A DNA stretch of 15,574 nucleotides from a virus (lineage: Duplodnaviria > Heunggongvirae > Uroviricota > Caudoviricetes): the IMG/VR virus record IMGVR_UViG_2802429244_000016. One strand, written 5' to 3'. Below are positions 2,899 through 15,574 of this stretch, in pieces. Within the stretch, counting starts at the first letter, position 1; each line of letters starts with the position of its first letter. The position numbers and the translations under genes were made by a program. Below the pieces are notes generated by a model. That model did no database searches. It was given only the letters and a program-made list of their open reading frames with translations, and was not told where the DNA came from.

Positions 2899-3214
2899 TA
2901 TTTAACAGTTAGCCATGGAGAAGGGCAATCGCTCTTTTAACAACGAAGATGGAATCTTCTACGCAGCTGAAAAGCTGGATGCTCTTTAACAGCCTTTGGT
3001 GCTTTCCTGATGCAGGAAAGAATAGGGATACATGCACCTTTACAATGCATGTAATGATTCATCCATGAGGCTGCGGAGCGCTGACAAAGCGCAATTGCTC
3101 TTTAACATTGATGTGGGCGGGATGGTTCGTCCCGCAGTGACCGATAGATTTCTATCGGGAAACATACAATGATTCAAATATGAATCTACGGCGCTGACAA
3201 AGCGCAATTGCTCT
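2899..3214 (+). repeat. Repeat-rich int-alpA intergenic region: exact 24-bp direct repeat GCGCTGACAAAGCGCAATTGCTCT twice, plus 3-4 copies of a CTCTTTAACA-like motif
   Basis: Identical 24-mers at 3078-3101 and 3191-3214, each with an internal hairpin GCGCT-GACAA-AGCGC. CTCTTTAACA-like copies at 2931-2942, 2981-2991 and 3098-3107. Hairpin GCGGGATGGTTCGTCCCGC near 3117-3135. Confidence 0.55.
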
Positions 3215-3476
3215 CTTGCCTGCCCACCATGCCCTGAAAAAGGGCGTTCTTTAAAACTACTGGATGTCACGCCTAATAGCGTGATCCTGCCGAAATGCAG
3301 GGTAGCTCTACCCTTGTGGAGCAAACAAACCAAAACAATCTGACTATCTTTTATAAAAGACCGCAATATGTTTTTCATATTGTGGTCTTTGGCGTATTCG
3401 ACATTTGACGCAAATAAAACTCTCGCCATTCGTTGCAGGAGGGGGTTATTGCGTCATTAGTACAGGATATTAATAA

Positions 3477-3680
3477 ATGGCTAATTACAATTCATTAATT
3501 CGTCTCTCTGAAGTTCAAAGGCGAACTGGTTATAGCAAAGCATGGATTTATCGTCTTATTAGTCAGGGGAGGTTCCCTAAACAGGTAAAAATTGGAAGTC
3601 GGGCTATTGCTTTTGTTGAGTCTGAAATAGATGAATGGATTGAGAAGTGTATATTAGAATCTAGAGACGAGGTGGCCTGA
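3477..3680 (+). CDS. alpA: AlpA-family phage/satellite transcriptional regulator (excisionase-like winged-helix DNA binding)
   Basis: 67-aa protein MANYNSLIRLSEVQRRTGYSKAWIYRLISQGRFPKQVKIGSRAIAFVESEIDEWIE, the classic AlpA motif pattern; positioned just downstream of the P4-type integrase. Confidence 0.85.
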   Translation: MANYNSLIRLSEVQRRTGYSKAWIYRLISQGRFPKQVKIGSRAIAFVESEIDEWIEKCILESRDEVA

Positions 3681-4111
3681 TGGAAAAGAAAAACCGCCCA
3701 TTACAGGCGGCTAATTCAGATATTCGCGTATCTGATGTTACGCCCCTGACAAAATCCCTTCAAGCACCAAAGCGCACACCGAAAAAGCATCGTGCCAGAG
3801 TCTATATGCTGCGTACTGGTATAGAGGGATGGACAGAAAATGACATTCTTCGCTACTGCCGTCTGTCTTCTGGTCGTAACTATGCAACAGAGTTAGAACG
3901 CCAGCTTGGAATCACTCTGGAGCGTATCGACGAAAAGAATCCTGATGGTATCGGAACACACCTTCGCTACCGTTTCTCCTGCCGTGGTGATGTTCTGAAA
4001 GTGATCACTCATATTAACCATCTTGCGAACATAAATGATCACAACGGACTTTCTCAGCAGGAAATTGCCGACATTCTGAAACTCTACCCGGACGCGTTTA
4101 ACGCCGCCTAA
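3680..4111 (+). CDS. Hypothetical protein (143 aa), basic N-terminus, translationally coupled to alpA
   Basis: ATG overlaps the alpA stop (TGATG). Protein starts MEKKNRPLQAANSDIRVSDV; K/R-rich N-terminus (PKRTPKKHRAR). No family recognised. Confidence 0.6.
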   Translation: MEKKNRPLQAANSDIRVSDVTPLTKSLQAPKRTPKKHRARVYMLRTGIEGWTENDILRYCRLSSGRNYATELERQLGITLERIDEKNPDGIGTHLRYRFSCRGDVLKVITHINHLANINDHNGLSQQEIADILKLYPDAFNAA

Positions 4112-4123
4112 CGGAGACTGAAA

Positions 4124-4957
4124 ATGAACATCGAAAAAAGCAGATTAATTTCTGAGGCCGCCCCTCATCTGAACGCCTCTCTGGGCACAATTAACGGTAA
4201 TGAATTTGCCGCAATTGTCCCGGTTATTCCTGGTCATATCGGTGGGCGTGAAACCAATATTGTTAGCGCAAAAGCGTTGCACAAAGCGTTGGGCGTGGGA
4301 AAAGACTTCTCTACATGGATCACTGATCGCATCTCTGAATATGACTTCACCATTGGGCACGATTACTCAGTCCATAAAACTATTTCCCCAAATTTGGGGA
4401 AAAGCCCGAATGGCGCGGCTTACAGCAAGATTAAGCAGTCTGGCAGACCCGGCAAAGACTATCTGTTAAGTGTCGGAATGGCGAAAGAACTGGCAATGAT
4501 CGAACGCAATGATCAGGGTCGCGCTATCCGCCGTTATTTCATCCAGTGCGAGGAAGAATTACAGCGTAGCGTGCCTGAAATCGCCGCCCGCTATCGTCGC
4601 CAGCTAAAAGCCCGTATCAGTGCCGCAAACAACTTTAAGCCAATGTGCGATGCGCTGAATATGGCCCGTGCCGAGATGGGGAAAACGACGCAGCAACACC
4701 ACTACACAAACGAGAGCAATATGATTTCTCGTATCGTTCTTGGTGGGCTAACTGCTAAGCAGTGGGCGCGGATAAATGGCTATTCTGGCGAACCTCGCGA
4801 CCATATGAACGCAGAACAGCTTGAGCACCTCTCATATCTCGAAAGCACCAATATCACGTTAATTGATATGGGCATGGAATATGAGCAGCGCAAAGGAGAA
4901 CTCACCCGCCTGTCGCAACGCTGGCTCGCCAAGCGTCTGGAGGCGCTCAATGTCTAA
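4124..4957 (+). CDS. Phage antirepressor-like protein with AntA-type N-terminal domain
   Basis: 277 aa; GGAG upstream of the ATG. Segment SAKALHKALGVGKDFSTWITDRISEYDFTIGHDYSV resembles the AntA/AntB motif (W-I-x-x-R-I-x-x-Y-x-F-x-x-G-x-D-Y), recalled from memory. Confidence 0.55.
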   Translation: MNIEKSRLISEAAPHLNASLGTINGNEFAAIVPVIPGHIGGRETNIVSAKALHKALGVGKDFSTWITDRISEYDFTIGHDYSVHKTISPNLGKSPNGAAYSKIKQSGRPGKDYLLSVGMAKELAMIERNDQGRAIRRYFIQCEEELQRSVPEIAARYRRQLKARISAANNFKPMCDALNMARAEMGKTTQQHHYTNESNMISRIVLGGLTAKQWARINGYSGEPRDHMNAEQLEHLSYLESTNITLIDMGMEYEQRKGELTRLSQRWLAKRLEALNV

Positions 4958-5132
4958 GCCAACAGGAATACCACAACCTCAAAAACGCTACAAAGATGCC
5001 CACGGAGCACTCGTTACTGTCGAAAGCGTGTCTCACAACCGAGTGACGTTTTATCGCGACGGGTATCAATCGCCATGCGTACAACCGCTGGCGCGCTTCA
5101 TGAAGGAGTTCGCGGAGGTTAACAAATGCTAA
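4950..5132 (+). CDS. Small hypothetical protein (60 aa; DUF4222-like by recollection)
   Basis: ATG at 4950 preceded by GGAGG (4939-4943) and overlapping the upstream stop; MSKPTGIPQPQKRYKDAHGALVTVESVSHNRVTFYRDGYQSPCVQPLARFMKEFAEVNKC. The ORF track's 4863 start lacks an RBS. Confidence 0.55.
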   Translation: MSKPTGIPQPQKRYKDAHGALVTVESVSHNRVTFYRDGYQSPCVQPLARFMKEFAEVNKC

Positions 5133-5563
5133 CCGCCCAGAAGAAGACATTTTCACTGGCTGGCATGTCGCCAAAATCCAGCAATATGACAGCAAAGTCA
5201 GGCATTAATACAGCAGATACAAGCAAAGTTTATCATTTGCTGGTGGTAGGAGCGGATGCCTTAACTATGTCAGAAATCACGGTCGATGGTGTTAGCGTTG
5301 AGAAGGTCAGCGGCTGCGCCAGAGAATTTCTGGTCGTAGATCACCTGTTCTGCTCGTGTAGTGACTCCACAAAAACATTCGTCCACGCGCGTGACGTTAA
5401 CGAAATGAGCGCGATGTACTGTGCTTCTGGTTCTTCCAATAGTGAGTTTTCGGAGTCCATAAAAAAGAGCTTGCCGTTATGCGGCAACACGGTTTATGGT
5501 TATAAGGCACCTCATAAAACGGGTGCCGGGTTTCGCAGCCCGGAAATGTACGAGGCGACACAT

Positions 5564-5584
5564 GACGCGCCGAGCGTCTTTTTT
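5564..5584 (+). terminator. Candidate intrinsic terminator (short GC stem plus T6)
   Basis: GACGC-GCCGA-GCGTC followed by TTTTTT (5579-5584). Stem is only 5 bp, so this is weak. Confidence 0.35.
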
Positions 5585-5594
5585 TGTGCCGTTA

Positions 5595-5632
5595 GCCAGA
5601 CTCACACTTTTTTCAGTGATGTGGTTATAATC
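5595..5632 (+). promoter_or_regulatory. Candidate sigma70 promoter for the small-ORF/primase operon (perfect -10 TATAAT at 5625-5630)
   Basis: GTGATGTGGTTATAATCCGCG; no convincing -35 hexamer (CACACT-like at about 5602-5607). Lies downstream of the candidate terminator and upstream of the structured leader. Confidence 0.35.
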
Positions 5633-5639
5633 CGCGTCG

Positions 5640-5788
5640 CTTGCAAAATTATGGTGGGCTGGACAGGGCAGCCGAAAGGCTGGCCGGTTTCCTTGTACGC
5701 CGGTACTGCGAACTCTGTTCAGTCCACCACCAGCGAGTTTCGCAGCTCCGGTGGTGGGAAGAATTCCCAGTACAAGGAGGCTGCCACA
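5640..5788 (+). ncRNA. Structured 5' leader / candidate regulatory RNA upstream of the primase operon (possible P4 CI-RNA-like immunity element)
   Basis: GNRA hairpin CAGCC-GAAA-GGCTG (5668-5681); 8-bp stem CCACCACC (5723-5730) / GGTGGTGG (5749-5756) presenting loop TTTCGCAG; single-stranded CTGCGAA (5706-5712) complementary to that loop; an upstream hairpin CCGGG-TTTCGCAG-CCCGG (5526-5543) presents the same loop sequence. Confidence 0.4.
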
Positions 5789-5982
5789 TGCTGGCTACTA
5801 CCCCTACCCAAAAACCGCAATTTATCTGGATTATCGCCGCAGTTCGCCGCGATTGCCAGACAATTACCGCCAAAATTCATCATATTGCTGCCGAGTCTGA
5901 ACGCGATGCTCGCCGTTCTCTGGTGCGCGATCACGTCTGCTTTTTTGCTGGTCGTATCCGCATGGAGGTGGCACATGATTAA
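5789..5982 (+). CDS. Hypothetical small protein (64 aa), first gene of the coupled operon
   Basis: Strong RBS AGGAGG (5775-5780) 8 nt before the ATG at 5789; MLATTPTQKPQFIWIIAAVRRDCQTITAKIHHIAAESERDARRSLVRDHVCFFAGRIRMEVAHD. Confidence 0.55.
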
Positions 5983-6193
5983 AACCTACGATGTGCATAT
6001 GGATCCCCTCGAACGCACAAGCCAGATCATCACACTGACAGAGGTGATTAATGACATTCTGGTGAGCAACTCTCCCTCACGAGACGAAAAACTGAAGGCG
6101 TTACTCGCGATATTGGATCTCGCCGTTCGTGACGTTCATTTCCTGCTGGAAGGTGGACAAATGCCATGCAAAACGGGGGCAACCAATGAATAA
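5975..6193 (+). CDS. Hypothetical small protein (72 aa)
   Basis: ATG at 5975 preceded by GGAGG (5964-5968) and overlapping the upstream stop; MIKTYDVHMDPLERTSQIITLTEVINDILVS... The ORF track shows this frame open from 5126, but the upstream part lacks a start context. Confidence 0.5.
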   Translation: MIKTYDVHMDPLERTSQIITLTEVINDILVSNSPSRDEKLKALLAILDLAVRDVHFLLEGGQMPCKTGATNE

Positions 6194-6380
6194 CTCAATT
6201 AATACCCCTCGCCTTACGTCCGCACTTCAATTAATCGAGCAAGCAGCGGCTGTCCTGGTTGCTGTCAGTCTTTCGGCTGAAGAAATGGACGCTGCTGATG
6301 TCGTGGATGCGATTAAAGCGTGCTCATCTTTGGTTAACGATGCCCGTGCAGAGCTGGTAATTCTTGGTGGTGAAAAATGA
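6186..6380 (+). CDS. Hypothetical small protein (64 aa)
   Basis: ATG at 6186 overlaps the upstream stop; MNNSINTPRLTSALQLIEQAAAVLVAVSLSAEEMDAADVVDAIKACSSLVNDARAELVILGGEK. Confidence 0.5.
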   Translation: MNNSINTPRLTSALQLIEQAAAVLVAVSLSAEEMDAADVVDAIKACSSLVNDARAELVILGGEK

Positions 6381-6640
6381 ATATCAACTTAATTTATCGT
6401 CATCCGTGTGAGCTGGAAATTGAATCATTGCTGGGGCGCGAAGAGCCATATCCAGACACATTCACTCCCGCAGATTGCGCGACTGAACGGCTTACCAGAG
6501 CGCGCACAGGTCTGGTTCATGTGATGAATGAGATTATTCCCTCGGTGGGAGGGGAACAGGCGACAGTAATCAATAGCTGGCTACAAAAAGTTACCTCCCT
6601 GATAGATATCAGTTTAATCGATGTGGAGAGTGCGAAATGA
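6377..6640 (+). CDS. Hypothetical small protein (87 aa)
   Basis: ATGA start/stop overlap with the upstream gene; MNINLIYRHPCELEIESLLGREEPYPDTF... Confidence 0.55.
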   Translation: MNINLIYRHPCELEIESLLGREEPYPDTFTPADCATERLTRARTGLVHVMNEIIPSVGGEQATVINSWLQKVTSLIDISLIDVESAK

Positions 6641-6858
6641 CCAACATCCAGCTCATTGAAGCGCAATGTCGCATCGAACAGGTTCAGACTGTTTTAGGGT
6701 TCTGGCTTGAAGGGGCCAGCCCCAGCAACAGAGACAAGTTAATGATTGGCGCGGTTATGTCACTGCTCAATGGCGTACCAGAAGCTATTCAGGAAGCGGA
6801 CGAATTGTTGGGCAAATATGAGTTACAGAATCATTCAGGCGAGGCGAAACATGAATAA
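6637..6858 (+). CDS. Hypothetical small protein (73 aa)
   Basis: ATGA overlap with the upstream gene; MTNIQLIEAQCRIEQVQTVLGFWLEGASPSNRDKLMIGAVMSLLNGVPEAIQEADELLGKYELQNHSGEAKHE. Confidence 0.5.
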   Translation: MTNIQLIEAQCRIEQVQTVLGFWLEGASPSNRDKLMIGAVMSLLNGVPEAIQEADELLGKYELQNHSGEAKHE

Positions 6859-7453
6859 TTTCTTAACTTTCCATGCAGAAGCAACGCCTGACGGCGTAAA
6901 CATCATGTACCGCAGCAACGATGGCATGACAGAACGCGTTGAGGCCGTCTCATATATTGATGCCGTAAATCGTCTGGATGCCGGGGATTATGACGATAAA
7001 CCAGATGAAGGTATGTCAATACATCTCGCTATTGCCGATGGCGGCAACCAGGGATATTTCGATTACACATCACAGCATAACGTCATTATGTGGAGATGGC
7101 TGATCGCCACAGTATTCATGCTGGAAATGAGAGAGGAAAACGGCACTGTCAGCATCATTGATGATACTGGCAATCCTTCCGAAGTGGCTGTTTATTCCAA
7201 CGGCATCGTCGCCATGCCGCTGTATCCAGTAGCAGAGCGCCTCGCTATGGCAAACAACATTGAGGGCGCGATGATAGAACGTTTTGGCATCGAGTCTGGC
7301 ACAGAACGCGCCATCATTTTCTACAGAGCCATGATGGATGTGGAACAAGGAGCACTGACTCCATTTGGTCGTGAAACGCTTGCTGAACTTCACAACAGCT
7401 TTATAGCTGAACTGAATGAAAACGGCATGCCAGCGGAACCAGTGACGCACTGA
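6851..7453 (+). CDS. Hypothetical protein (200 aa)
   Basis: ATG at 6851 overlaps the upstream stop (ATGAATAA); MNNFLTFHAEATPDGVNIMYRSNDGMTERVEAVSYIDAVNRLDAGDYDDKPDEG... The ORF track's 6746 start would overlap the upstream gene in another frame without an RBS. Confidence 0.6.
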   Translation: MNNFLTFHAEATPDGVNIMYRSNDGMTERVEAVSYIDAVNRLDAGDYDDKPDEGMSIHLAIADGGNQGYFDYTSQHNVIMWRWLIATVFMLEMREENGTVSIIDDTGNPSEVAVYSNGIVAMPLYPVAERLAMANNIEGAMIERFGIESGTERAIIFYRAMMDVEQGALTPFGRETLAELHNSFIAELNENGMPAEPVTH

Positions 7454-7463
7454 GGATGGAACC

Positions 7464-7805
7464 ATGATTACTAAAAATTTCCGACTGAATGCGCTGGCAA
7501 ATAAGTATGCGTCGGCACTGTATAACCACATAACCTCCACCAGCGGCGGGGACTATTTCATGGTTGATGCGGACGGCGAAGCCGTCCGTGTGGAAATCGT
7601 CAATGGAGTAAAAGGCGTTCGCAGACTGATCGATAGCTACACACTGGCAGCCATGAAAGTGTTCTACCCGCAGTGGGAAACCGTGGGGATTGAGCTTCTT
7701 GATCGTTGCGTCACTAAGGACGGATTGACTGACGTCGGGCGTGAGATATGGCAAAGCATGGTTAAAGACATGGGCGCAACTGTAGCGGGAGGTTCTCATG
7801 CGTGA
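7464..7805 (+). CDS. Hypothetical protein (113 aa)
   Basis: RBS GAGGATGG before the ATG at 7464; MITKNFRLNALANKYASALYNHITSTSGGDYFMVDADGEAVRVEIVNG... Confidence 0.6.
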   Translation: MITKNFRLNALANKYASALYNHITSTSGGDYFMVDADGEAVRVEIVNGVKGVRRLIDSYTLAAMKVFYPQWETVGIELLDRCVTKDGLTDVGREIWQSMVKDMGATVAGGSHA

Positions 7806-8169
7806 AAATGCAGAAATGGCGCTTAGCTCCGCAATCGGAGAGCAGGTGGCAAAGATTGCTGGTGCTGTGTGGATTCATAACCTTCATTCTACTGGTGAAG
7901 AGAAAATGGCAATTCAGACGCCAGAGGGACGCACCATTACTACATCTCTGAAGCCGTCAGATATTTGTGATCTGATTTGCACATTCATGTACCCAGCAAT
8001 GAGGACTGTCCACGGCGATAAGTGGAAACTTGCGACAACCGCTGAATTTGATATGTGGCTAAACAATGATGGCATGCTGACTGATTACGGAATAACCAAG
8101 TGGCAGATGCTGGTTAGCCATATCGCAAACGCTATAGACCACGTGGGGTACGGTGATGCGAAACATTGA
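7798..8169 (+). CDS. Hypothetical protein (123 aa)
   Basis: RBS GGAGG (7788-7792) then ATG at 7798, overlapping the upstream stop; MRENAEMALSSAIGEQVAKIAGAVWIHNLHSTGEEK... Confidence 0.6.
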   Translation: MRENAEMALSSAIGEQVAKIAGAVWIHNLHSTGEEKMAIQTPEGRTITTSLKPSDICDLICTFMYPAMRTVHGDKWKLATTAEFDMWLNNDGMLTDYGITKWQMLVSHIANAIDHVGYGDAKH

Positions 8170-10912
8170 TCTTATCCGTCAGGTTATCAGTGCGTCTGAA
8201 AACAACTGGCCTCATGTGCTGGGCTGCCTGAACATAAATGTCCCTGACTCTCCGCGCCGTCATGCTCCCTGCCCTGCATGTGGGGGCAAAGATCGATTCC
8301 GGTTCGATGACAACGGGCGCGGTAGCTTCATCTGTAATCAGTGCGGCGCTGGTGATGGGCTGGATTTAATTAAACGCGTAAATAACTGCGACACAACAGA
8401 GGCGGCGCTTCTTGCCGCTGATGTTCTGGGTATTGATTACCGGACAACGGAAACACCAGAAGCCACCAGCCAGAAACGGGAACAACAGGAAACCGAGCGC
8501 CAGCGACGCGAACAGGAGCGCCTGAAAAGGGCAGAGAAGGACGAACAACAAAGACGGGATACGTTTTCCCGTCAGTTTGATGACATGCGCAGAAAGGCTG
8601 TAAACGGCAAATCTGATTATCTGGTTGCGAAAGGGGTAGGTGATTTTACATTCCCCGTGTTGCCCGATGGATCTCTGTTGCTGGCGCTGGTGGATAAATC
8701 CGGCGCAGTAACAGCAGCACAGACTATTACCTCACATGGTGAAAAAAGACTCCTGACAGGTTCAGCAAAGCGAGGGGCATATCACGCCATAAACGCACCA
8801 GAAACAACACAGAGCATCTTAATCGCAGAAGGGCTGGCAACGGCATTATCTGCCCATTTAATTCGTCCAGAGGCGCTGACAGTGGCGGCGATTGATGCCG
8901 GGAACCTGTTATATGTCGCCCAGGTACTGCGGGATAAATTTCCTTCAGCACAAATCATCATTGCTGCGGATAACGACCACAGCGAAGGAAGACAAAACAC
9001 GGGGAGAATAGCAGCAGAAAAGGCAGCTTTATCTGTTTCTGGATGGGTGGCATTACCCCCGACAGATCACAAAGCAGACTGGAATGATTACCACCAAAAA
9101 CACGGCATTAAATGCGCCACAGAAGCGTTCAATAAGTCAATGTACCAACCACAGGGTAATGGCGTGAAACAGGAGCCACAGACCATTGAGGGAAGCGATT
9201 TTAAGGTTATGGATACCGACCCACTGAAACCAAGAATAGAAAGCCGCGAGGATGGTATTTATTGGGTATCTCCGAGAGCTGACAGCCAGAGTGGAGAAAT
9301 CATCAATAACGAAAGCTGGTTATGTTCTCCGTTAAGCGTTATCGGTACTGGCAGAGACGATAAAGACCAGTATCTCATTCTTCGCTGGCTGTCGTTTGGT
9401 TCTGAAACGCCGACAACCGCTGCCATTCCACTGGCTGATATTGGTGAACGTGAAGGATGGCGCACACTTAAAGCTGGTGGGGTAAATGTCACGACCAAAA
9501 GCAGCCTCAGAGCAATACTGGCAGACTGGCTACAACGCAGTGGCTCTCGTGAATTGTGGCGTGTTGCTCATGCCACTGGCTGGCAATGCGGAGCGTACAT
9601 CATGCCTGATGGGGAAATCATCGGAACACCTGAAAATCCTGTGCTGTTCAGCGGGAGAAGCTCAGCCGCAGCCGGATATACCGTCTCAGGGAGCGCGAAA
9701 AGCTGGCGTGATAACGTGGCGCGTCTGGCCTTTGGTAACTATTCAATGATGACCGGGATCGGCGCAGCACTGGCAGCGCCATTGATTGGGCTGGTGGGCG
9801 CTGACGGGTTCGGCATTCATTTCTATGAGCAGTCGAGCGCAGGTAAGACCACCACGGCAAACGTGGCGAGCAGCTTATACGGCAACCCTGATTTACTGCG
9901 GCTGACGTGGTACGGAACCGCGCTGGGGCTGGCAAATGAAGCCGCCGCCCACAATGACGGACTAATGCCGCTTGATGAAGTTGGTCAGGGCGCTGATCCT
10001 GTCAGTGTTTCACAGTCTGCCTATGCGTTATTTAACGGTGTAGGGAAACTGCAAGGTGCTAAAGATGGTGGAAACCGGGATCTAAAACGCTGGCGTACAG
10101 TGGCAATCAGCACCGGAGAAATGGATTTAGAAACATTTATCGCTACTTCCGGGCGAAAAACCAAAGCCGGGCAACTGGTGCGACTGCTGAATATTCCGTT
10201 GAGTAAAGCAGTACGCTTTCACGATTACCAGAACGGAAAACAGCACGCAGACGCACTGAAAGACGCTTACCAGCATCACCACGGCGCAGCCGGGCGTGAG
10301 TGGATTAAATGGCTGGCAGACCACCAGCAACAGGCTATTAAAACTGTTCGTGACTGCGAAAGCAGATGGAGAAGCCTGATTCCATCCGATTATGGTGAGC
10401 AGGTTCACCGTGTAGCCGCGCGATTTGCCATTCTGGAGGCCGCATTGCTGTTAGGCGAGGTTGTAACAGGCTGGGATGCTCAGACATGCCGTGATGCGAT
10501 ACAGCACAGCTATAACGCATGGTTGCGCGAGTTCGGCACAGGTAACAAAGAACATCAGCAGATTATTGAACAAACGGAGGCATTTCTTAATGCCTATGGG
10601 CTTAGCCGTTTTGCACCATTTCCATACAGCCCGGCAGATTTGCCAATCAAAGATTTAGCCGGATACCGTCAGCGTGGAGAACATGACGAAAGCCCAATGA
10701 TTTTCTACACATTCCCGGCCACATTTGAAAAGGAGATCGCATGTGGTTTCAACGCAAAACAGTTTGCTGAAGTGTTGAAAAAAGCCGGGATGCTAACCCC
10801 ACCAAACAGCGGTCGTGGATACCAAAGAAAATCACCACGTATTCAGGGACGACAAATAAACGTTTATGTACTCAATTACCAGCCAGGAGATTACAACTCA
10901 TCTGAAGAATGA
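8153..10912 (+). CDS. Bifunctional DNA primase/helicase, P4 alpha-like (zinc-ribbon + TOPRIM primase N-terminus, P-loop NTPase C-terminus); functionally the pri-rep of a satellite
   Basis: 919 aa. Cys4 zinc ribbon CPACGGKDRFRFDDNGRGSFICNQCG; TOPRIM-like IAEGLATALS and IIIAADNDHSEGRQNTG; Walker A FYEQSSAGKTT. Start is GTG 8153 or ATG 8156, overlapping the upstream gene. Confidence 0.9.
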   Translation: MMRNIDLIRQVISASENNWPHVLGCLNINVPDSPRRHAPCPACGGKDRFRFDDNGRGSFICNQCGAGDGLDLIKRVNNCDTTEAALLAADVLGIDYRTTETPEATSQKREQQETERQRREQERLKRAEKDEQQRRDTFSRQFDDMRRKAVNGKSDYLVAKGVGDFTFPVLPDGSLLLALVDKSGAVTAAQTITSHGEKRLLTGSAKRGAYHAINAPETTQSILIAEGLATALSAHLIRPEALTVAAIDAGNLLYVAQVLRDKFPSAQIIIAADNDHSEGRQNTGRIAAEKAALSVSGWVALPPTDHKADWNDYHQKHGIKCATEAFNKSMYQPQGNGVKQEPQTIEGSDFKVMDTDPLKPRIESREDGIYWVSPRADSQSGEIINNESWLCSPLSVIGTGRDDKDQYLILRWLSFGSETPTTAAIPLADIGEREGWRTLKAGGVNVTTKSSLRAILADWLQRSGSRELWRVAHATGWQCGAYIMPDGEIIGTPENPVLFSGRSSAAAGYTVSGSAKSWRDNVARLAFGNYSMMTGIGAALAAPLIGLVGADGFGIHFYEQSSAGKTTTANVASSLYGNPDLLRLTWYGTALGLANEAAAHNDGLMPLDEVGQGADPVSVSQSAYALFNGVGKLQGAKDGGNRDLKRWRTVAISTGEMDLETFIATSGRKTKAGQLVRLLNIPLSKAVRFHDYQNGKQHADALKDAYQHHHGAAGREWIKWLADHQQQAIKTVRDCESRWRSLIPSDYGEQVHRVAARFAILEAALLLGEVVTGWDAQTCRDAIQHSYNAWLREFGTGNKEHQQIIEQTEAFLNAYGLSRFAPFPYSPADLPIKDLAGYRQRGEHDESPMIFYTFPATFEKEIACGFNAKQFAEVLKKAGMLTPPNSGRGYQRKSPRIQGRQINVYVLNYQPGDYNSSEE

Positions 10913-10938
10913 GCTTCTTCATGTGCGTAGAAAAGGTG

Positions 10939-11048
10939 TTGGTTCAGTTGGTTCAGTTGGCTCAATTTGTAAAGAGTATTGTTTTATAAGGATTTTATTC
11001 TTTTTGTTGAACCAACACTGAACCAACAACACGGTATTTTGAACCAAC
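10939..11048 (+). repeat. Iteron cluster A (ori-like): 3 tandem GTTGGTTCA, AT-rich spacer, 3 inverted TGAACCAAC
   Basis: GTTGGTTCA at 10939-10947 and 10948-10956, GTTGGCTCA at 10957-10965; AT-rich spacer; TGAACCAAC at 11008-11016, 11019-11027 and 11040-11048. Immediately 3' of the primase gene. Confidence 0.7.
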
Positions 11049-11098
11049 ACAATGTGACTGAATTGATGCGCACAACACCTGGCTGGCATCAGAGAGTG

Positions 11099-11174
11099 TT
11101 TTACGAGACTTTCGTAAAATCCTGTGTACAAGGGCGTGGCGTTTTTGAAGGATAAACCTACGAAATTTTCGTAG
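11099..11174 (+). promoter_or_regulatory. Two dyad-symmetric operator-like sites with shared core TACGA-N5-TCGTA
   Basis: TTTTACGA-GACTT-TCGTAAAA (11099-11119) and the perfect 17-bp palindrome CTACGAAATTTTCGTAG (11158-11174), centres about 57 bp apart. Confidence 0.5.
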
Positions 11175-11370
11175 TTCAAAAAATAGTCTCTGAGATGTTG
11201 TTATGCCTGTTCAGCAAACCATCTGCGTAGCTGATCGCGAATCAAATTACCAATGGAGCCAGAAGCAAGGGCAGAACTGGAAATCGCCTGCCGTGTAGAG
11301 TAATGCGACACCATAAATATAGTTTTCAGAGTCCATAGAAACCTGTCAAAACCTGACATACAGAACGATG

Positions 11371-11399
11371 CCACCAGATACTGAATGGTGGAATTTTTG
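11371..11399 (+). terminator. Weak candidate intrinsic terminator
   Basis: CCACCA-GATACTGAA-TGGTGG followed by AATTTTTGT; 6-bp stem, so marginal. Confidence 0.25.
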
Positions 11400-11493
11400 T
11401 GCTATTTGTTTCATATTTTGCAATAACAATGATGAGTGATGCGATTTATGAAACTATAATAACTGTTGTTTTATACAGATCTAAGGGGGCGTT

Positions 11494-11673
11494 ATGGCTA
11501 TTTCAGTAAAGCCAGTATTGATAAGTGAGAAGCAAATGGAAGCGATAAAGAAAATTCAGGAAGAGCAGCGTAAAAAATCAGAGGTAGGAGTTGCGCCAAC
11601 GATCCATGAAATTGCTCGGGGATTAATGGATAAGGCGCTGACAATACACGCAAAAATGAAGGTGTCTGCATGA
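11494..11673 (+). CDS. Small hypothetical protein (59 aa), translationally coupled to the 604-aa gene
   Basis: Not in the supplied ORF track (below its length cut-off). RBS AAGGGGG (11482-11488) then ATG at 11494; TATAAT at 11455-11460 upstream; stop TGA overlaps the next ATG (ATGA). MAISVKPVLISEKQMEAIKKIQEEQRKKSEVGVAPTIHEIARGLMDKALTIHAKMKVSA. Confidence 0.5.
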   Translation: MAISVKPVLISEKQMEAIKKIQEEQRKKSEVGVAPTIHEIARGLMDKALTIHAKMKVSA

Positions 11674-13484
11674 TTATCAATGAGTTGGCCTACAAGGTCA
11701 CAATTAAGGCCGATGAATTCCTGAATGGAAAACGGAAAGTAAAAGATGAAGTTAGTAAATTAAACAAAGATCTTTCCAGGGCTGAGAAGGAAAGGTTAAA
11801 GGAACTTGAAAAACAACGGCAGGAAATGGAGAAGTTCAGTAAAAACGCTGTTTCAGCTTTCCGCAACGTGACAACAGCAGCCGCTGGATTTTTGGGAATC
11901 GGCGCTGGGTTGTATGGAATCAAGCAACTTTTTACATCTACCGTCAACGAAATCGTGAGAGCCAGTCAACAGGCCAAGTTTTTCGGTTCTGATGTTAATA
12001 AGATGTTTGGTGTTCAGCGGGGATTTCGTCAGGCTGGTCTTAACGGTGACTCGTTCATTTCATCTTCTGGGAATGCCAGAATGGCTTTGGCAAATATTGC
12101 CGATCCAACTGTTATGGGAGGGCTTACTGGCGCTGCCCAAAATTTGCTGGTTCTTGGCGCTCGCACCGGATTAGATATCAATAAGCTCGGTGACCCAAAC
12201 AAGGCTCTTGCTGAGTTTTCTCGCTATGGCAAGACTCATTCTCAAGAAAACCTGATGCAGGTGATGGCTGCCGCAGGGTTCGATCCGACAGATGCCGCTA
12301 AAATAAAATCAGGGGAACTTAAGCAGCTTGTCGATTCAGAAACAAAGAAATCCCGTATTACCGCACAGCAGGTAAAAGAGCAGGAGAAGGTTGCCGCCAC
12401 TCTTGGTCAACTTGATTCAGAGTTTTCCCGATTAAAGCAAAATTTAGCCATGGCATTTGCTCCTGACGTTATTGACGGAATGAAGGCTTTTGGTTCCTGG
12501 ATTGAGAAACATCATGGCGACATCATTGGCTTTTTCAATGACGCCGGAAATATGACGAAGCAATTCACAAAGGCAGTTGGTGGTGCGGAAGAGGCTCTGA
12601 AACTATTGGCAGCAGCATATGTAGGAAGCAAACTTACAGGCGGCGCCCTTCCTCCATGGTTGGCTGGGTTAATAGCATATGGTTTGTATCTCTACAATGA
12701 CAGGGAAAACATTGAGGGTGCAGCTAAAGGATCGTTTGATTACTCTAAGCGTGAACTTGGAGATACCATGCGCAGCATGGGGTTTGACACCGATTTTGGG
12801 CGTAGGGGAGATGAGATTTATGGCAATAACATTCAGCCAGATATCCCTCTCCCTGACGGAGTAAAGCCAGTAAGCATGGATTCTCTCCTTGACGCCATTC
12901 GTGAGGTGGAATCGAGTGGTGGTAAAAAACTTTATAGCCCGAAAGGTGCTGTTGGTCCGTATCAGTTCATGAAGGATACTGCCATAGCGTACGGGTTAAA
13001 GGTCGGGGATGGGATTGATGAGCGCCTTGATGAGGTGAAATCTCGCGCTGCTGCTGAAAGGTTCATGAGGGATTTGCTAAAGCACTATAAAGGCAATGTT
13101 AACCATGCGCTGATGGCTTACAACTGGGGGATGGGCAATGTAGATAAAAAGTTAAAATACATATCCAGTACCGGGTTTGATTCACCATCATCCAAATACT
13201 GGAACACCTTACCGAAAGAGACGCGAGAATATGTGCCAAAGATTCGCGCAGCTCTTAATGCAAAAGAAAACGAGACGCTGGCTTACTATCAGCAGCAGCA
13301 ACGCATCGCCTCAACACCAAGCCAGACAACATCAAAAATTGACAACAGCCGTAGCAGCAGTACAACTATTGGCACGGTTGTTGTTAACAGTAACCCGACA
13401 ACAGTTGATGCTCTTACCAGAAGTGTCAATCAGCAAGTTAGCCGGGTGTCAACAAACGCGGCATTTTCTAGTGCCGTTAAGTAG
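11670..13484 (+). CDS. Coiled-coil, membrane-associated protein with C-terminal lytic transglycosylase (SLT/lysozyme-like) domain and Q/S/T-rich tail; tape-measure or injection-protein-like architecture
   Basis: 604 aa. N-terminal K/E-rich coiled coil (about aa 20-60); hydrophobic segments AAAGFLGIGAGLYGI and ALPPWLAGLIAYGLYLY; SLT signature about aa 404-490 (nt about 12879-13140): DAIREVESSGG, GAVGPYQFM, ALMAYNWGMGN. Tail YYQQQQRIASTPSQTTSKIDNSRSSSTT. Confidence 0.8.
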   Translation: MIINELAYKVTIKADEFLNGKRKVKDEVSKLNKDLSRAEKERLKELEKQRQEMEKFSKNAVSAFRNVTTAAAGFLGIGAGLYGIKQLFTSTVNEIVRASQQAKFFGSDVNKMFGVQRGFRQAGLNGDSFISSSGNARMALANIADPTVMGGLTGAAQNLLVLGARTGLDINKLGDPNKALAEFSRYGKTHSQENLMQVMAAAGFDPTDAAKIKSGELKQLVDSETKKSRITAQQVKEQEKVAATLGQLDSEFSRLKQNLAMAFAPDVIDGMKAFGSWIEKHHGDIIGFFNDAGNMTKQFTKAVGGAEEALKLLAAAYVGSKLTGGALPPWLAGLIAYGLYLYNDRENIEGAAKGSFDYSKRELGDTMRSMGFDTDFGRRGDEIYGNNIQPDIPLPDGVKPVSMDSLLDAIREVESSGGKKLYSPKGAVGPYQFMKDTAIAYGLKVGDGIDERLDEVKSRAAAERFMRDLLKHYKGNVNHALMAYNWGMGNVDKKLKYISSTGFDSPSSKYWNTLPKETREYVPKIRAALNAKENETLAYYQQQQRIASTPSQTTSKIDNSRSSSTTIGTVVVNSNPTTVDALTRSVNQQVSRVSTNAAFSSAVK

Positions 13485-13509
13485 TCATACTTCTAGTGCT
13501 CGTTGAAAA

Positions 13510-14226
13510 TTATTTGGATAATGAGTTAGCCACTCTAATTACCTTAATTAAGAATGCGTATTCTACTGAGCCTTTCCCATAGGCTCTTTCTGCTATATCT
13601 AAAGCTTTAACAAGAGGTATTCCGTGCTGGTCTTGTGTAATATTGGCAACCATAACACCCTGACATGCTAACATTCCGTCAACCCTCAGTATGGAATAGC
13701 TTGTTGAATCTTTTGGAGCCTCTTGAGATAACTGTTCGCAATGATTTTTTATCGTTAAACCATGTATCTTTTTTTGTGATGCATAAAGCTCCAGTGCTGA
13801 AACCTTTTGCTCAGTTGTAGCATTTGATGGAACCGTGGGGTAAATAACCTGATCTGGATGTTGACTGTAATAATACTCGGTTGCCATCTCAGAAGATGTA
13901 TTAATGACATTAATTTGATAGGCTTTCCTGTCATCATTGAAGCCCCAAACAGATTTAACCTTGGCTATTTTCCACTGATTTATTTCTTTTGCATTTTTAG
14001 CAACAACTGCCGTTCTCATGGCGTCTATGCAGGTAAGATTCACATAAGACCTAACATCTGCAGGTGTTTCCCCAATTTTCGCGAGTTCATCCCCTGATTT
14101 CTCAACAACTTGCTCAGCGTATGAAGAACATTTTTCAATAAGATCTAACCCCGTCACATTTTCAGCATTTACCTTCACAGACAGGAAGATGGAGAACATT
14201 ATTACGAGTGCCGTTATTTTTTTCAT
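13510..14226 (-). CDS. Secreted (Sec signal peptide) hypothetical protein, 238 aa, four Cys; convergent with the SLT-domain gene
   Basis: MKKITALVIMFSIFLSVKVNA followed by ENVTG (predicted cleavage after VNA). Mature part has four Cys, consistent with periplasmic disulfides. Visibly AT-rich compared with the rest of the element. No family recognised. Confidence 0.75.
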   Translation of the reverse strand: MKKITALVIMFSIFLSVKVNAENVTGLDLIEKCSSYAEQVVEKSGDELAKIGETPADVRSYVNLTCIDAMRTAVVAKNAKEINQWKIAKVKSVWGFNDDRKAYQINVINTSSEMATEYYYSQHPDQVIYPTVPSNATTEQKVSALELYASQKKIHGLTIKNHCEQLSQEAPKDSTSYSILRVDGMLACQGVMVANITQDQHGIPLVKALDIAERAYGKGSVEYAFLIKVIRVANSLSK

Positions 14227-14583
14227 CTCGATACCATTGTGTAATTTTGATGACTTTATCTACTAACCTGTTTATCAACATATGATTTACCACAAAACGT
14301 GAGATTTCATAACGCGTCCAGCAGTTGATGTTGCCAATCCTACTACATGATCTGTTAATATTTGTTAATATTCTAAGCCGTTAAGATGATGTACTGATTT
14401 TCTATTTGGCAGCCTGTCAGTCCTCACCCTCAACGACGCAAAAAGCAACTCTGCCGACCACGAATTATCTCATGGATGGTCATATCATACCGGGCACCAC
14501 TAGCATGGAGGCAAATGATAAAACCATATGAGAGCACCAGCCAATCAACAGAAGAAACCTGCACCTCTTCAGATAACCCAGAG

Positions 14584-15027
14584 CTATGACTGTAGAACCA
14601 CCATTATTTTCTCAGTGTTACGTCCTTGTCGTTTCCACGCGCTGTAAATGTCTTTATCCCACGCTTTACCAGCTTTTGTTTGATAGCCTGCTTCATTGAG
14701 CCGTTCAGCTATCACACGCCCATTATCAAATCCCTGTTGGATGGTATCGGCAATGATCTTTATAACTGCCGTTTCGTTATATGGCTTTGGTGGGATGTTC
14801 GGCTTTCCGGCAATAAGCGACGCAGCGGCTTTTTCCATGCGCTCCACCAGCCCAAGCATTCGTGAATCAATAGACTTTTCCGGCTGTCCCAGCTTCATGC
14901 GAATCGCATCAACAAGCCAGGAGGTTTTATCCCCTCCAGAAGCGAGAACAGACCGATTAAACTCATCCTGCAATTCAGATGGGATGCGGAACGCGATCAG
15001 ATTAGATTTGCTCATTGCAAAGACCAT
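14584..15027 (-). CDS. Putative DNA-binding regulator: N-terminal ribbon-helix-helix (CopG/Arc/MetJ-like) plus C-terminal recombinase-type HTH-like motif
   Basis: Either MVFAMSKSNLIAFRIPSELQDEFNRSVLASGGDKTSWLVDAIRMKLG or its internal Met: beta strand IAFRIP followed by two helices fits RHH. C-terminal IAERLNEAGYQTKAGKAWDKDIYSAWKRQG resembles the recombinase-type HTH motif. Neither candidate start has a clear RBS. Confidence 0.6.
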   Translation of the reverse strand: MVFAMSKSNLIAFRIPSELQDEFNRSVLASGGDKTSWLVDAIRMKLGQPEKSIDSRMLGLVERMEKAAASLIAGKPNIPPKPYNETAVIKIIADTIQQGFDNGRVIAERLNEAGYQTKAGKAWDKDIYSAWKRQGRNTEKIMVVLQS

Positions 15028-15128
15028 ATCAGTGAGTAATATCCATACAGTATACCACTGTATAACACTGTTATACGCTCAAATATCAGCCAGAAAATAA
15101 CGGGCCAATCACAAAGCTATCGCTGTGT

Positions 15129-15250
15129 TGTTGGTTCAGAGCTGGGCTGTGTTGGTTCAAAATGAGTTGATGTTGGTTCAATATTTTAGAAAAAACACAA
15201 TAAAAACAACGATCTTTACAAATTGAACCAACTGAACCAACTGAACCAAC
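15129..15250 (+). repeat. Iteron cluster B (crr-like), inverted copy of cluster A
   Basis: GTTGGTTCA at 15129-15137, 15151-15159 and 15172-15180; AT-rich spacer; tandem TGAACCAAC at 15224-15232, 15233-15241 and 15242-15250. Its reverse complement aligns with 10935-11050, including the spacer word CAATTTGTAAAGA. Confidence 0.7.
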
Positions 15251-15286
15251 ACCTTTTTGCTTATCTATATAATCTGAGAGGCAGAA

Positions 15287-15574
15287 ATGATAAGGGACAG
15301 GAAAGCTGAAGAGCTGGAGTCAAAAGGGCTATACCGGAGAGCTGCCGCACGATGGGCAGAAGTCATGATGCTGGCAGATGGCGATAAAGAACGTGAACAT
15401 GCAGCAAACAGACGCTCTGAATGTATCCGTAAGGCGGCACGCCCACCAGCAACTACAGACAGATTCGGAGATTTAAGACAGGCAGTTAAGCGGACTCATT
15501 CGGCTCTTGGTATGGATGAGGAAGCGAGAGGGTACTTCAGGCGTTATCGCGATAAAGATTGCCAGAGACAGTAA
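15287..15574 (+). CDS. PerC-family transcriptional regulator-like protein (95 aa)
   Basis: RBS GAGAGG before the ATG; MIRDRKAEELESKGLYRRAAARWAEVMMLADGDKERE... matches the conserved PerC/Pch N-terminal pattern as I recall it; the stop TAA is the last codon of the window. Confidence 0.65.
   Translation: MIRDRKAEELESKGLYRRAAARWAEVMMLADGDKEREHAANRRSECIRKAARPPATTDRFGDLRQAVKRTHSALGMDEEARGYFRRYRDKDCQRQ

Follow-up and report, generated by a model that had tools for sequence, protein, structure and literature searches.

A myovirus-type tape-measure gene in the exchangeable slot of an EcCIMP1-like phage-inducible chromosomal island

Do the genes between the two iteron clusters of this phage satellite defend its carrier, or do they serve its transfer by a helper phage? 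The window, by which we mean the whole 15,574-nucleotide stretch of DNA analysed here, carries four ORFs between these clusters: a 59-aa leader ORF (11494-11673, plus strand), a 604-aa gene (11670-13484, plus strand), a 238-aa gene (13510-14226, minus strand) and a 147-aa gene (14584-15027, minus strand). A first-pass annotation had taken them together as one cargo unit spanning 11494-15027 and as a candidate defence module. All four ORFs are real, and so are the bracketing iteron clusters, which carry a ~120-bp unit of GTTGGTTCA and TGAACCAAC repeats in opposite orientations and are conserved in relatives. The left cluster (10931..11051), which consists of GTTGGTTCA x3 followed by TGAACCAAC x3, belongs to the backbone and is kept in relatives L002-L005, and the right cluster (15125..15257) is its inverted copy.

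Judging from gene content and order, the element is an EcCIMP1-like phage-inducible chromosomal island (PICI) at thrW. EcCIMP1, a PICI of E. coli MP1, was experimentally mobilised by the P22-like phage Kapi1, with excision and transfer only upon helper induction; it contributes to superinfection immunity, no known defence system was found on it, and a Kapi1-like prophage occurs in only 2 of its 21 carrier strains (Pick, Stadel & Raivio, ISME J 2025, PMC11773190). The window is 98% identical to it across 1254-2998 and 3234-11643 (~10 kb), sharing the thrW (proA/yagU) site, with the tRNA-Thr at 1370-1445, and a backbone in which the thrW-adjacent integrase, AlpA, AntA, Ash, DUF927 primase, leader ORF and PerC-family regulator gene (15287..15574, plus strand; Pfam PF06069, E 2.6e-33; a homologue of EcCIMP1_025) follow the EcCIMP1 order at high identity. 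Both have the iteron clusters and a slot downstream of the primase. It is the content of this slot that differs: EcCIMP1 holds P22-type DUF2824/gp7/gp20/SLT-gp16 genes and a lipoprotein gene, whereas in the window these DNA-transfer genes are absent 3′ of the primase, replaced by a myovirus tape-measure gene and a gene for a secreted protein. The authors of EcCIMP1 proposed a packaging role for the slot genes and did not describe an exchangeable genome-delivery cassette (PMC11773190).

The limits of the slot were set by blastn of the window against relatives L002-L005 and L043. Backbone homology ends at 11643 and restarts at 14587-14624, leaving 11644..14586 as the exchangeable cassette and the sole noted segment that differs from EcCIMP1-like relatives. 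Thus, the earlier proposal of a variable slot stands in that its content differs among otherwise conserved relatives, after the same leader ORF, but its extent has to be narrowed, and the four ORFs are not one cargo unit, since comparison with relatives places the 59-aa and 147-aa genes in the conserved backbone. As far as 11643 the leader ORF belongs to the satellite backbone, the final ~10 codons depend on the cassette type, its 37 homologues have variable C-terminal tails, and the tail 'MKVSA' recurs in the tape-measure cassettes of Cedecea and Ewingella. As first noticed in the earlier annotation, it is coupled to the 604-aa gene, its stop overlapping the next start (ATGA) and an AAGG-type ribosome-binding site preceding each of the two ORFs. 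It is unrelated to the 67-aa ORF (67-71 aa among phages) that lies before the tape measure in phages, and its AF2 model (extended N-terminus and two helices, pLDDT 74) gave no structural match. The 147-aa protein, formerly labelled an 'RHH regulator', shows 93-94% identity among E. coli relatives that have other cassettes and 65-68% in Cedecea and Serratia, its C-terminal tail alone varying with the cassette. Neither small protein has a match among Pfam, NCBIfam or PDB profiles, and an RHH assignment for either is putative.

The 604-aa protein, by homology and gene position, is a tail tape-measure protein of the GF-2/E217-like myovirus type with a C-terminal lytic transglycosylase. Positions 11670-13474 are 98.3% identical at the nucleotide level, with ORF-exact junctions, to a gene lying between the tail chaperones and the baseplate in a prophage of E. 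coli TW10590, and the order sheath, tube, chaperone, this gene, baseplate was found in all six prophage copies inspected. A 95-98% identical gene lies between tail tube/chaperone and baseplate genes in prophages L001 and L034-L037, and a 56%-identical homologue takes the same position in a Citrobacter farmeri prophage. Profile searches gave phrog_2013 "lytic tail protein" (E 5.8e-190) and, for aa 2-348, phrog_9570 'tail length tape measure protein' (E 4e-10), and distant homologues include that of Edwardsiella myophage GF-2. With the GF-2/E217-like 'lytic tail protein' it has the overall architecture in common, in which ~320 aa at the N-terminus and ~60 aa at the very end are conserved and the lytic domain is C-terminal. 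The lytic domain (SLT, PF01464; aa 402-498, 12873..13163; E 3.5e-20, 72.2 bits against a cutoff of 21.3) had been recognised in the first-pass annotation, and its Glu-Ser motif is present, with the putative catalytic E414 in VESSGG and YQFM following at 431; PDB sequence matches extend to the T7 gp16 transglycosylase (E 5e-4). The label 'membrane protein' fits only weakly, the best 19-residue Kyte-Doolittle score, from the Gly/Ala-rich aa 66-84 and 309-327, reaching only 1.19. The proposed membrane-anchored, peptidoglycan-cleaving abortive-infection effector therefore finds no support in this protein, which instead has tape-measure homologues with structural neighbours; the alternative raised at the same time, that of a helper-linked virion or injection protein, fits both this identity and the cassette pattern described below.

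What separates the satellite gene from its phage counterparts is small and localised. The two proteins have equal length and 98.8% amino-acid identity, with eight differing residues (53, 55, 57, 59, 92, 593 and 603-604), and M53, K55, N59, V92 and a C-terminal AVK are common to all satellite copies, so that in aa 53-92 and at the C-terminus the window protein has residues typical of the satellite lineage. Unlike in the phages, the gene stands in an element with no other tail gene. Nine satellite copies were found, representing three alleles, all intact. The window allele differs by 31 nt from a phage allele and by 60 nt from satellite allele C, and the satellite alleles thus appear to be in ongoing contact with phage alleles. 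Alleles A and B differ at 21 synonymous and 0 non-synonymous codons. dN/dS against other satellite and phage alleles is 0-0.07, with satellite-phage comparisons at 0.055-0.067, several phage-phage pairs at 0.017-0.067, and pairs involving the mosaic ph34 allele at 0.13-0.21. Judging from these substitution patterns, the gene is maintained as a functional gene under purifying selection.

Convergent on the tape-measure gene lies the 238-aa gene, an AT-rich, phage-type moron. As had been noticed, it encodes a predicted secreted protein with four cysteines: its hydrophobic, signal-peptide-like N-terminus ends in VNA|E, and there are exactly four Cys (33, 66, 163 and 188) in what is modelled as an all-helical protein. 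The AT-rich patch reported earlier is also confirmed, with GC contents of 38.5% for this gene and 40.9% for the intergenic part of the cassette (14227..14583) against 47.6% for the whole window. This intergenic part, the presumed promoter region of the 238-aa gene, holds no conserved ORF and no Rfam RNA, and the one sigma-70-like match on the minus strand (14544-14515) is weak and not above chance. In satellites of Cedecea and Ewingella a 63%-identical orthologue sits beside the tape-measure gene, and in the Citrobacter farmeri prophage a 35%-identical homologue likewise lies convergent and directly 3′ of the tape-measure gene. Because of this shared position in a prophage, the two genes probably entered the satellite as one phage block. 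The protein matched no family among Pfam, PHROG or PADLOC profiles, and its AF2 model (pLDDT 80) matched no fold. Entry-exclusion morons beside tail genes are known from HK97 (gp15) and from T4 (Sp, the inhibitor of the tail lysozyme). These are small envelope proteins encoded beside tail or tape-measure genes, with their own promoter, that act on DNA entry where this depends on the tape measure or tail lysozyme, and they offer a possible model for the 238-aa protein, although no sequence or fold similarity to them was found; from its position and localisation, it may be an entry-exclusion factor.

Relatives show what else the slot can carry. Their cassettes include P22 gp14/gp7/gp20/gp16, podovirus internal virion proteins (phrog_418/342/684), and a tape-measure protein (phrog_2276, E 2e-199) with a Dit-like protein. 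The cassette of L022-26, by contrast, encodes three proteins without any phage-protein match, one of 223 aa with HExxH, one of 115 aa and a secreted one of 116 aa, indicating that the slot is not exclusively for delivery proteins. All delivery-protein cassettes seen to their distal end finish with a small envelope-targeted protein (the Klebsiella contigs end earlier), the distal proteins being 4-TM, multi-TM, lipoprotein, TM-anchored 91-aa, secreted, or of a Rap1a-like periplasmic immunity fold. In the Cedecea and Ewingella satellites, the whole module of leader with the same tail, tape measure and secreted protein is conserved at 60-80% amino-acid identity, parallel to a primase divergence of 70-75%. 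Such protein-level conservation across genera points to selection on the protein.

We consider it somewhat probable that 11644-14586 is a block from a temperate GF-2/E217-like myovirus, held in an exchangeable cassette, whose tape measure the satellite uses in helper tails. The block comprises the complete tape-measure gene together with the moron for the secreted protein, which in such phages is found convergent to it and directly 3′. In most relatives the same place, after a conserved ~55-aa leader ORF, is taken by proteins with which various phage types, by ejecting them, bring their DNA across the envelope. The comparisons show who the genes are, where the junctions lie, what is conserved and under purifying selection, and how the cassettes vary; beyond this, the mechanism we find likeliest is that helper tails are built with a tape measure supplied by the satellite. 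Upon induction of a helper, presumably a phage of the matching type, the satellite would transcribe the leader ORF and the tape-measure gene from its own promoter, and the protein would then be incorporated into helper-made tails, linking satellite transfer to this type of helper. Meanwhile the carrier cell would export the 238-aa protein to its periplasm, where it would most plausibly act as an entry-exclusion-type moron.

The closest precedent is the Vibrio cholerae PLE, for which experiments have demonstrated that a satellite tape measure is incorporated in satellite virions and contributes to transduction; the same study noted predicted tmp genes in unrelated satellites (Seed lab preprint 2025, PMC11838301). 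The window also has a satellite-encoded tape measure, yet the two differ in several respects. The PLE protein is ~20% identical to that of its helper and 95 aa shorter, giving shorter tails, whereas ours is 98.8% identical and cannot alter tail length, being of the same length as the phage protein; both the identity and the equal length count against our explanation, as they leave no obvious benefit in carrying the gene. The L022-26 cassette and the scarcity of Kapi1-like prophages among EcCIMP1 carriers weigh on the same side. So does the lack of a tail chaperone or baseplate hub, since the PLE comes with a chaperone and PLE11 also with a baseplate hub and the Rta defence protein. Conversely, the window tape measure has an SLT domain, and its slot is filled by podovirus ejection proteins in other relatives, both unlike PLE. 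More tentatively, one may propose a plug-in 'genome-delivery cassette' whose swapping would switch the satellite between myovirus, siphovirus-like and podovirus helpers, each version pairing the ejected proteins of the helper type, incorporated into hijacked virions, with a matched envelope protein that shuts out the same type of phage; the window would then represent, for myoviruses, a general and so far undescribed offence-plus-exclusion module.

Could the block act against the helper instead, the tape measure and/or the secreted protein making infection by phages of this type less productive through periplasmic exclusion of DNA entry or disturbance of tail assembly, and so protecting the carrier? 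EcCIMP1 does add superinfection immunity against its helper without a recognised defence system (PMC11773190), the distal envelope-targeted proteins recur, and the 238-aa gene, AT-rich, convergent and by prediction separately promoted, resembles lysogenic-conversion morons. The slot also recalls the variable hotspots in which P4-like satellites carry defence genes (Rousset et al. 2022, PMC9122126) in lying between conserved satellite genes, and genuine defence genes (Abi_2, RnlAB and the like) occur near the slot in relatives. However, the window slot, in contrast to those hotspots, is filled with phage structural DNA, and sid, psu and delta are absent from the element. In PADLOC-DB 2.0 none of the four proteins had a match below E 0.004, the best ones (0.004-0.05) being all partial and implausible, so that no known defence family is matched. 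Moreover, a tape measure only eight residues away from a functional phage protein is unlikely to serve as a poison or decoy, and the pair formed with the moron, being present inside the Citrobacter prophage as well, is not a satellite invention against phages. We regard the anti-helper reading as unlikely, although the 238-aa protein by itself may have a defensive role, in superinfection exclusion.

P22-type phages are known to transduce plasmids with the help of shared homology, and the 1.8-kb phage-identical segment could in the same way be a handle for recombination with the helper, the cointegrate being packaged from the helper's pac or cos and, once in the recipient, resolved by recombination between the duplicated tape-measure genes. 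A terminase small subunit is missing from the satellite, and no part of the prophage beyond the tape-measure segment resembles it, the terminase region included; identity to phage alleles is very high, and mosaic tracts attest real recombination between satellites and phages. The very inefficient transduction of EcCIMP1, whose packaging mechanism is unexplained (PMC11773190), would fit as well. This account nevertheless fails to explain why whole, intact genome-delivery genes come from several unrelated virion types, or why the junctions are ORF-exact and translation is coupled to that of a conserved leader ORF. The P22-type cassettes share with sequenced phages only short patches of 86-96% identity, a poor substrate for recombination, and the protein conservation across genera also speaks against it, so we hold it to be improbable. 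Least credible is a neutral recombination scar from a co-resident prophage with no role in the satellite: the DNA is of phage origin, phage-satellite mosaicism is common and the cassette is rare, with 0 occurrences in 5,426 complete E. coli genomes, but all copies are intact under low dN/dS, the module is conserved with its backbone across three genera and two integration sites, the junctions are ORF-exact and the tape-measure start is coupled to the leader.

It was long believed that satellites steal tails whole. Only in 2025 were some of them, the Vibrio PLEs, shown to encode a tape measure of their own (PMC11838301). The gene comparisons presented here suggest that a widespread enterobacterial PICI family keeps a dedicated, exchangeable slot for the helper's ejected DNA-delivery proteins, apparently filled with a tape measure where the helper is long-tailed and, where it is a podovirus, with ejection or internal virion proteins. 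If this is true, the helper type of an uncharacterised satellite could be predicted from the content of its cassette, and there would be a testable route to how EcCIMP1-like elements, which lack terminase and capsid-remodelling genes, are transferred, while the uncharacterised envelope proteins would become candidates for the unexplained superinfection immunity of EcCIMP1.

The window carries tRNA-Thr(CGU) at 1370–1445, downstream of proA, and shares 98% identity with EcCIMP1 of E. coli MP1 across 1254–2998 and 3234–11643, which at the sequence level assigns the element to the EcCIMP1-like family of PICIs. EcCIMP1 is a PICI whose excision and transduction by the P22-like phage Kapi1 were shown experimentally (PMC11773190). 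The sole backbone stretch left of the cassette without EcCIMP1 homology is 2999–3233, where a 129-aa ORF (3040–3429, minus strand) has no Pfam match and is not annotated as a gene in public contigs. Homology to the relatives ends at 11643, within the 3′ end of a 59-aa ORF (11494–11673, plus strand; the leader ORF), and restarts at 14587–14624, at the 3′ end of a 147-aa gene (14584–15027, minus strand), thus both genes belong to the conserved backbone. The first-pass annotation had taken all of 11494–15027 as cargo; this stands for the variable part, 11644–14586, and not for the two flanking genes. The four ORFs it proposed lie exactly where it placed them, the inner two being a 604-aa ORF (11670–13484, plus strand), which shares an ATGA overlap with the leader ORF, each preceded by a Shine-Dalgarno sequence, and a 238-aa ORF (13510–14226, minus strand), whose signal-peptide-like N-terminus and four cysteines agree with its description as a secreted four-Cys protein. 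The reported AT-richness also holds (GC 38.5% in the 238-aa gene vs. 47.6% in the window), as do the bracketing iteron clusters, with repeats at 10931–11051 and 15125–15257. The two clusters repeat one ~120-bp unit in inverted orientation, each copy consisting of GTTGGTTCA three times and then TGAACCAAC three times, with 55-nt arms that are 93% complementary; they flank the leader ORF, the cassette and the 147-aa gene, and are kept in relatives irrespective of cassette type. No profile, PDB or fold match was found behind the RHH assignment for the 147-aa or the 59-aa protein, and neither these two nor the 238-aa protein gave a significant family in PADLOC, Pfam, NCBIfam or PHROGs; a paralogous relationship of the leader ORF to the N-terminus of the 147-aa protein was rejected. 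An Rfam scan over 10800–15574 returned no match, and promoter and terminator scans returned nothing exceeding shuffled expectation.

The 604-aa ORF is 98.3% identical in nucleotide sequence to a prophage gene of E. coli TW10590 over 11670–13474, and the match follows the ORF exactly, beginning at most two bases from the start codon and stopping three codons short of the stop. In that prophage the gene is preceded by the sheath (DUF3383/E217_gp31), the tube and two small ORFs in the chaperone position and followed by baseplate genes, an order that is identical in five more prophages. The protein matches phrog_2013 “lytic tail protein” (E 5.8e-190) and a tape-measure PHROG (E 4e-10), and its closest relatives from isolated phages belong to the Edwardsiella myophages GF-2 and Edno5 (~30% identity, full length). 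Gene position, PHROG matches and phage relatives together identify it as a tape-measure protein whose C-terminal part is a lytic transglycosylase, a member of both the myovirus tape-measure/“lytic tail protein” family and the SLT family. The SLT domain called on first reading is recovered by Pfam at aa 402–498 (E 3.5e-20), E414 sitting within a VESSGG...YQFM motif; the best hydropathy window of what had been labeled a membrane protein is only 1.19. This allele type occurs in 16 of 5,426 complete E. coli genomes, and all five copies inspected are prophage-borne. Satellite and phage tape measures have equal length and differ at eight amino acids, and because of this near-identity the selective benefit of the satellite copy is not apparent. 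Descent of the leader ORF from the 67-aa ORF that precedes the tape-measure gene in the phage was considered and rejected, since the two show no sequence relationship and other genera keep the satellite tail. The first-pass annotation had preferred a defense or interference module, with a virion or injection protein used to hijack a helper as its alternative, and it is the alternative that the tape-measure identity supports. A defense module is now unlikely: PADLOC gives no match, the tape measure is essentially wild type, and by profile comparison the 604-aa protein belongs to no known defense system.

A survey anchored on the leader ORF covered 37 homologues, whose C-terminal tails differ with the downstream content, and confirms that slot contents vary between relatives behind the same leader ORF. 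Many E. coli elements, including EcCIMP1, as well as Serratia, carry P22-type DUF2824, gp7, gp20 (Inj_translocase) and gp16 genes, which share only short patches of 86–96% identity with sequenced phages including Kapi1; a truncated gp20 is also among the slot contents. Podovirus internal virion proteins (phrog_418, phrog_342 and phrog_684, with a weak T7_gp14 match) followed by a Rap1a-fold periplasmic protein form another type, and the Klebsiella slot encodes a tape-measure protein (phrog_2276, E 2e-199) and a Dit-like protein. An SLT domain is present in several cassette types, and the last gene of most cassettes encodes a small envelope-targeted protein (4-TM, multi-TM, lipoprotein or secreted). 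Judging from these contents, most cassette types encode virion-ejected proteins that carry DNA across the envelope. One cassette type (relatives L022–L026, ~10001–11600) is not phage-like. It encodes a 223-aa HExxH protein that matches Peptidase_M41 weakly, along with a 115-aa and a secreted 116-aa protein, and could be genuine accessory or defense cargo. In type VI secretion, Rap1a provides immunity to a peptidoglycan amidase, and the Rap1a-fold protein with a signal peptide that directly follows the podovirus-type cassette in the related satellite L027 (17938–18315) points tentatively to an inhibitor acting on a peptidoglycan hydrolase in the periplasm. Defense or toxin genes (Abi_2, RnlA/RnlB, AAA_15/AAA_21, HEPN with GmrSD_N, and Fic) also lie near the cassette in relatives (L003 17661–18623, L004 18037–19014, L040 16650–17612, L041 17949–19384, L038 7348–9330, L029 1845–7104), so the region from the cassette to PerC doubles as a defense hotspot; the window holds none of these genes.

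The exact tape-measure protein is found in at least six more contigs and the exact 238-aa protein in at least 11, and the cassette sits both at thrW and, in a related satellite, at the yicC-dinD site. Three satellite tape-measure alleles are known, every one intact. Alleles A and B differ at 21 synonymous and no non-synonymous codons, and satellite-phage comparisons give a dN/dS of 0.055–0.067, comparable to phage-phage pairs. Allele C differs mostly in one 150-nt tract and is thus mosaic. The window allele is 31 nt from one phage allele vs. 60 nt from allele C, and M53, K55, N59, V92 and the C-terminal AVK (603–604) are common to all three satellite alleles and present in none of five phage alleles; this combination points to a distinct satellite lineage of the gene, still exchanging internal sequence with phage copies. 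These satellite-only residues are possible determinants of satellite-specific behavior and usable as mass-spectrometry markers. Cedecea davisae and Ewingella americana have DUF927-primase satellites that keep the module too, as a leader ORF with the same “MKVSA” tail, a tape-measure gene and a convergent secreted-protein gene; at the amino-acid level the tape measures are 60–80% identical and the secreted proteins 63%, comparable to the primase (70–75%). In the Ewingella tape measure (L031/L032, 10753–12738) only the first 322 and the final 66 residues are kept, and a different, non-SLT central and C-terminal region takes the place of the lytic domain, which we interpret as domain swapping of the lytic module. 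The tape-measure gene is the sole similarity found between the window and the phage, with no other phage segment and, outside this gene, no pac/cos-like sequence common to the window and the prophage, and might be a homology handle for cointegrate packaging; this is improbable, leaving the functional theme of the cassettes and the protein-level conservation unexplained. A neutral scar is contradicted by conservation and purifying selection and is very improbable.

The 238-aa protein has no match in INPHARED phages, IMG/VR or complete E. coli genomes, and an exhaustive profile search placed it in a small, Enterobacterales-only family. This search overturned its candidacy as a satellite-specific protein: in Citrobacter farmeri, a prophage that shares the virion type encodes a 35%-identical homologue, whose gene directly follows the tape-measure gene in convergent orientation. 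The distal genes of other cassettes are absent from the phage collection, which is weak evidence because the 238-aa homologue surfaced only in the exhaustive search. The Citrobacter tape measure is 56% identical to that of the window and ends in ...FSSAVR, the satellite proteins in ...FSSAVK, and the E. coli prophage alleles in ...SSAMP or ...SSGVTP. Most simply read, the tape-measure gene and the 238-aa moron came into the satellite together, in a single contiguous piece of phage DNA. In E. coli, members of this prophage family have a moron hotspot with other content directly 3′ of the tape-measure gene, and E. coli phage homology therefore stops at the tape-measure stop codon. The hotspot is hypervariable and interrupts the tail operon (L001 15816–19300, L034–L037 ~4320–6800, L044 8785–12800); among its contents are small convergent proteins, one of which has a signal peptide, a Panacea domain with a LexA-like protein, a P63C protein and a P22 immI-like Arc/Ant region. 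We hypothesize that the 238-aa protein is a periplasmic entry-exclusion-type moron. In favor are its predicted export, its AT-rich, convergent and presumably separately promoted gene, the phage homologue at the same spot, the envelope proteins in that position of other cassettes, and the superinfection immunity that EcCIMP1 confers without explanation (PMC11773190); no family or fold match for the protein stands behind this hypothesis.

Our literature search found no description of this cassette or of the cross-morphotype pattern, and the work on helper-embedded PICIs (PMC10111431) has no bearing on the slot. For the “DNA transfer”-like genes that they noted in EcCIMP1, Pick et al. suggested a role in packaging (PMC11773190). 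All Vibrio PLEs encode a tape measure that replaces the phage protein in PLE virions and contributes to transduction, and the authors mention that unrelated satellites, too, have predicted tmp genes (PMC11838301); a tape-measure gene is likewise present in the EPIP satellites of Mycolicibacterium. The module of the window would function most like that of the PLEs, although its tape measure is not divergent from the helper protein and neither a chaperone nor a hub is encoded. On the PLE precedent we favor a model where helper induction would lead the satellite to express the leader ORF and the tape-measure gene, the satellite tape measure would be built into helper tails, and the cassette type would decide which helper is compatible.
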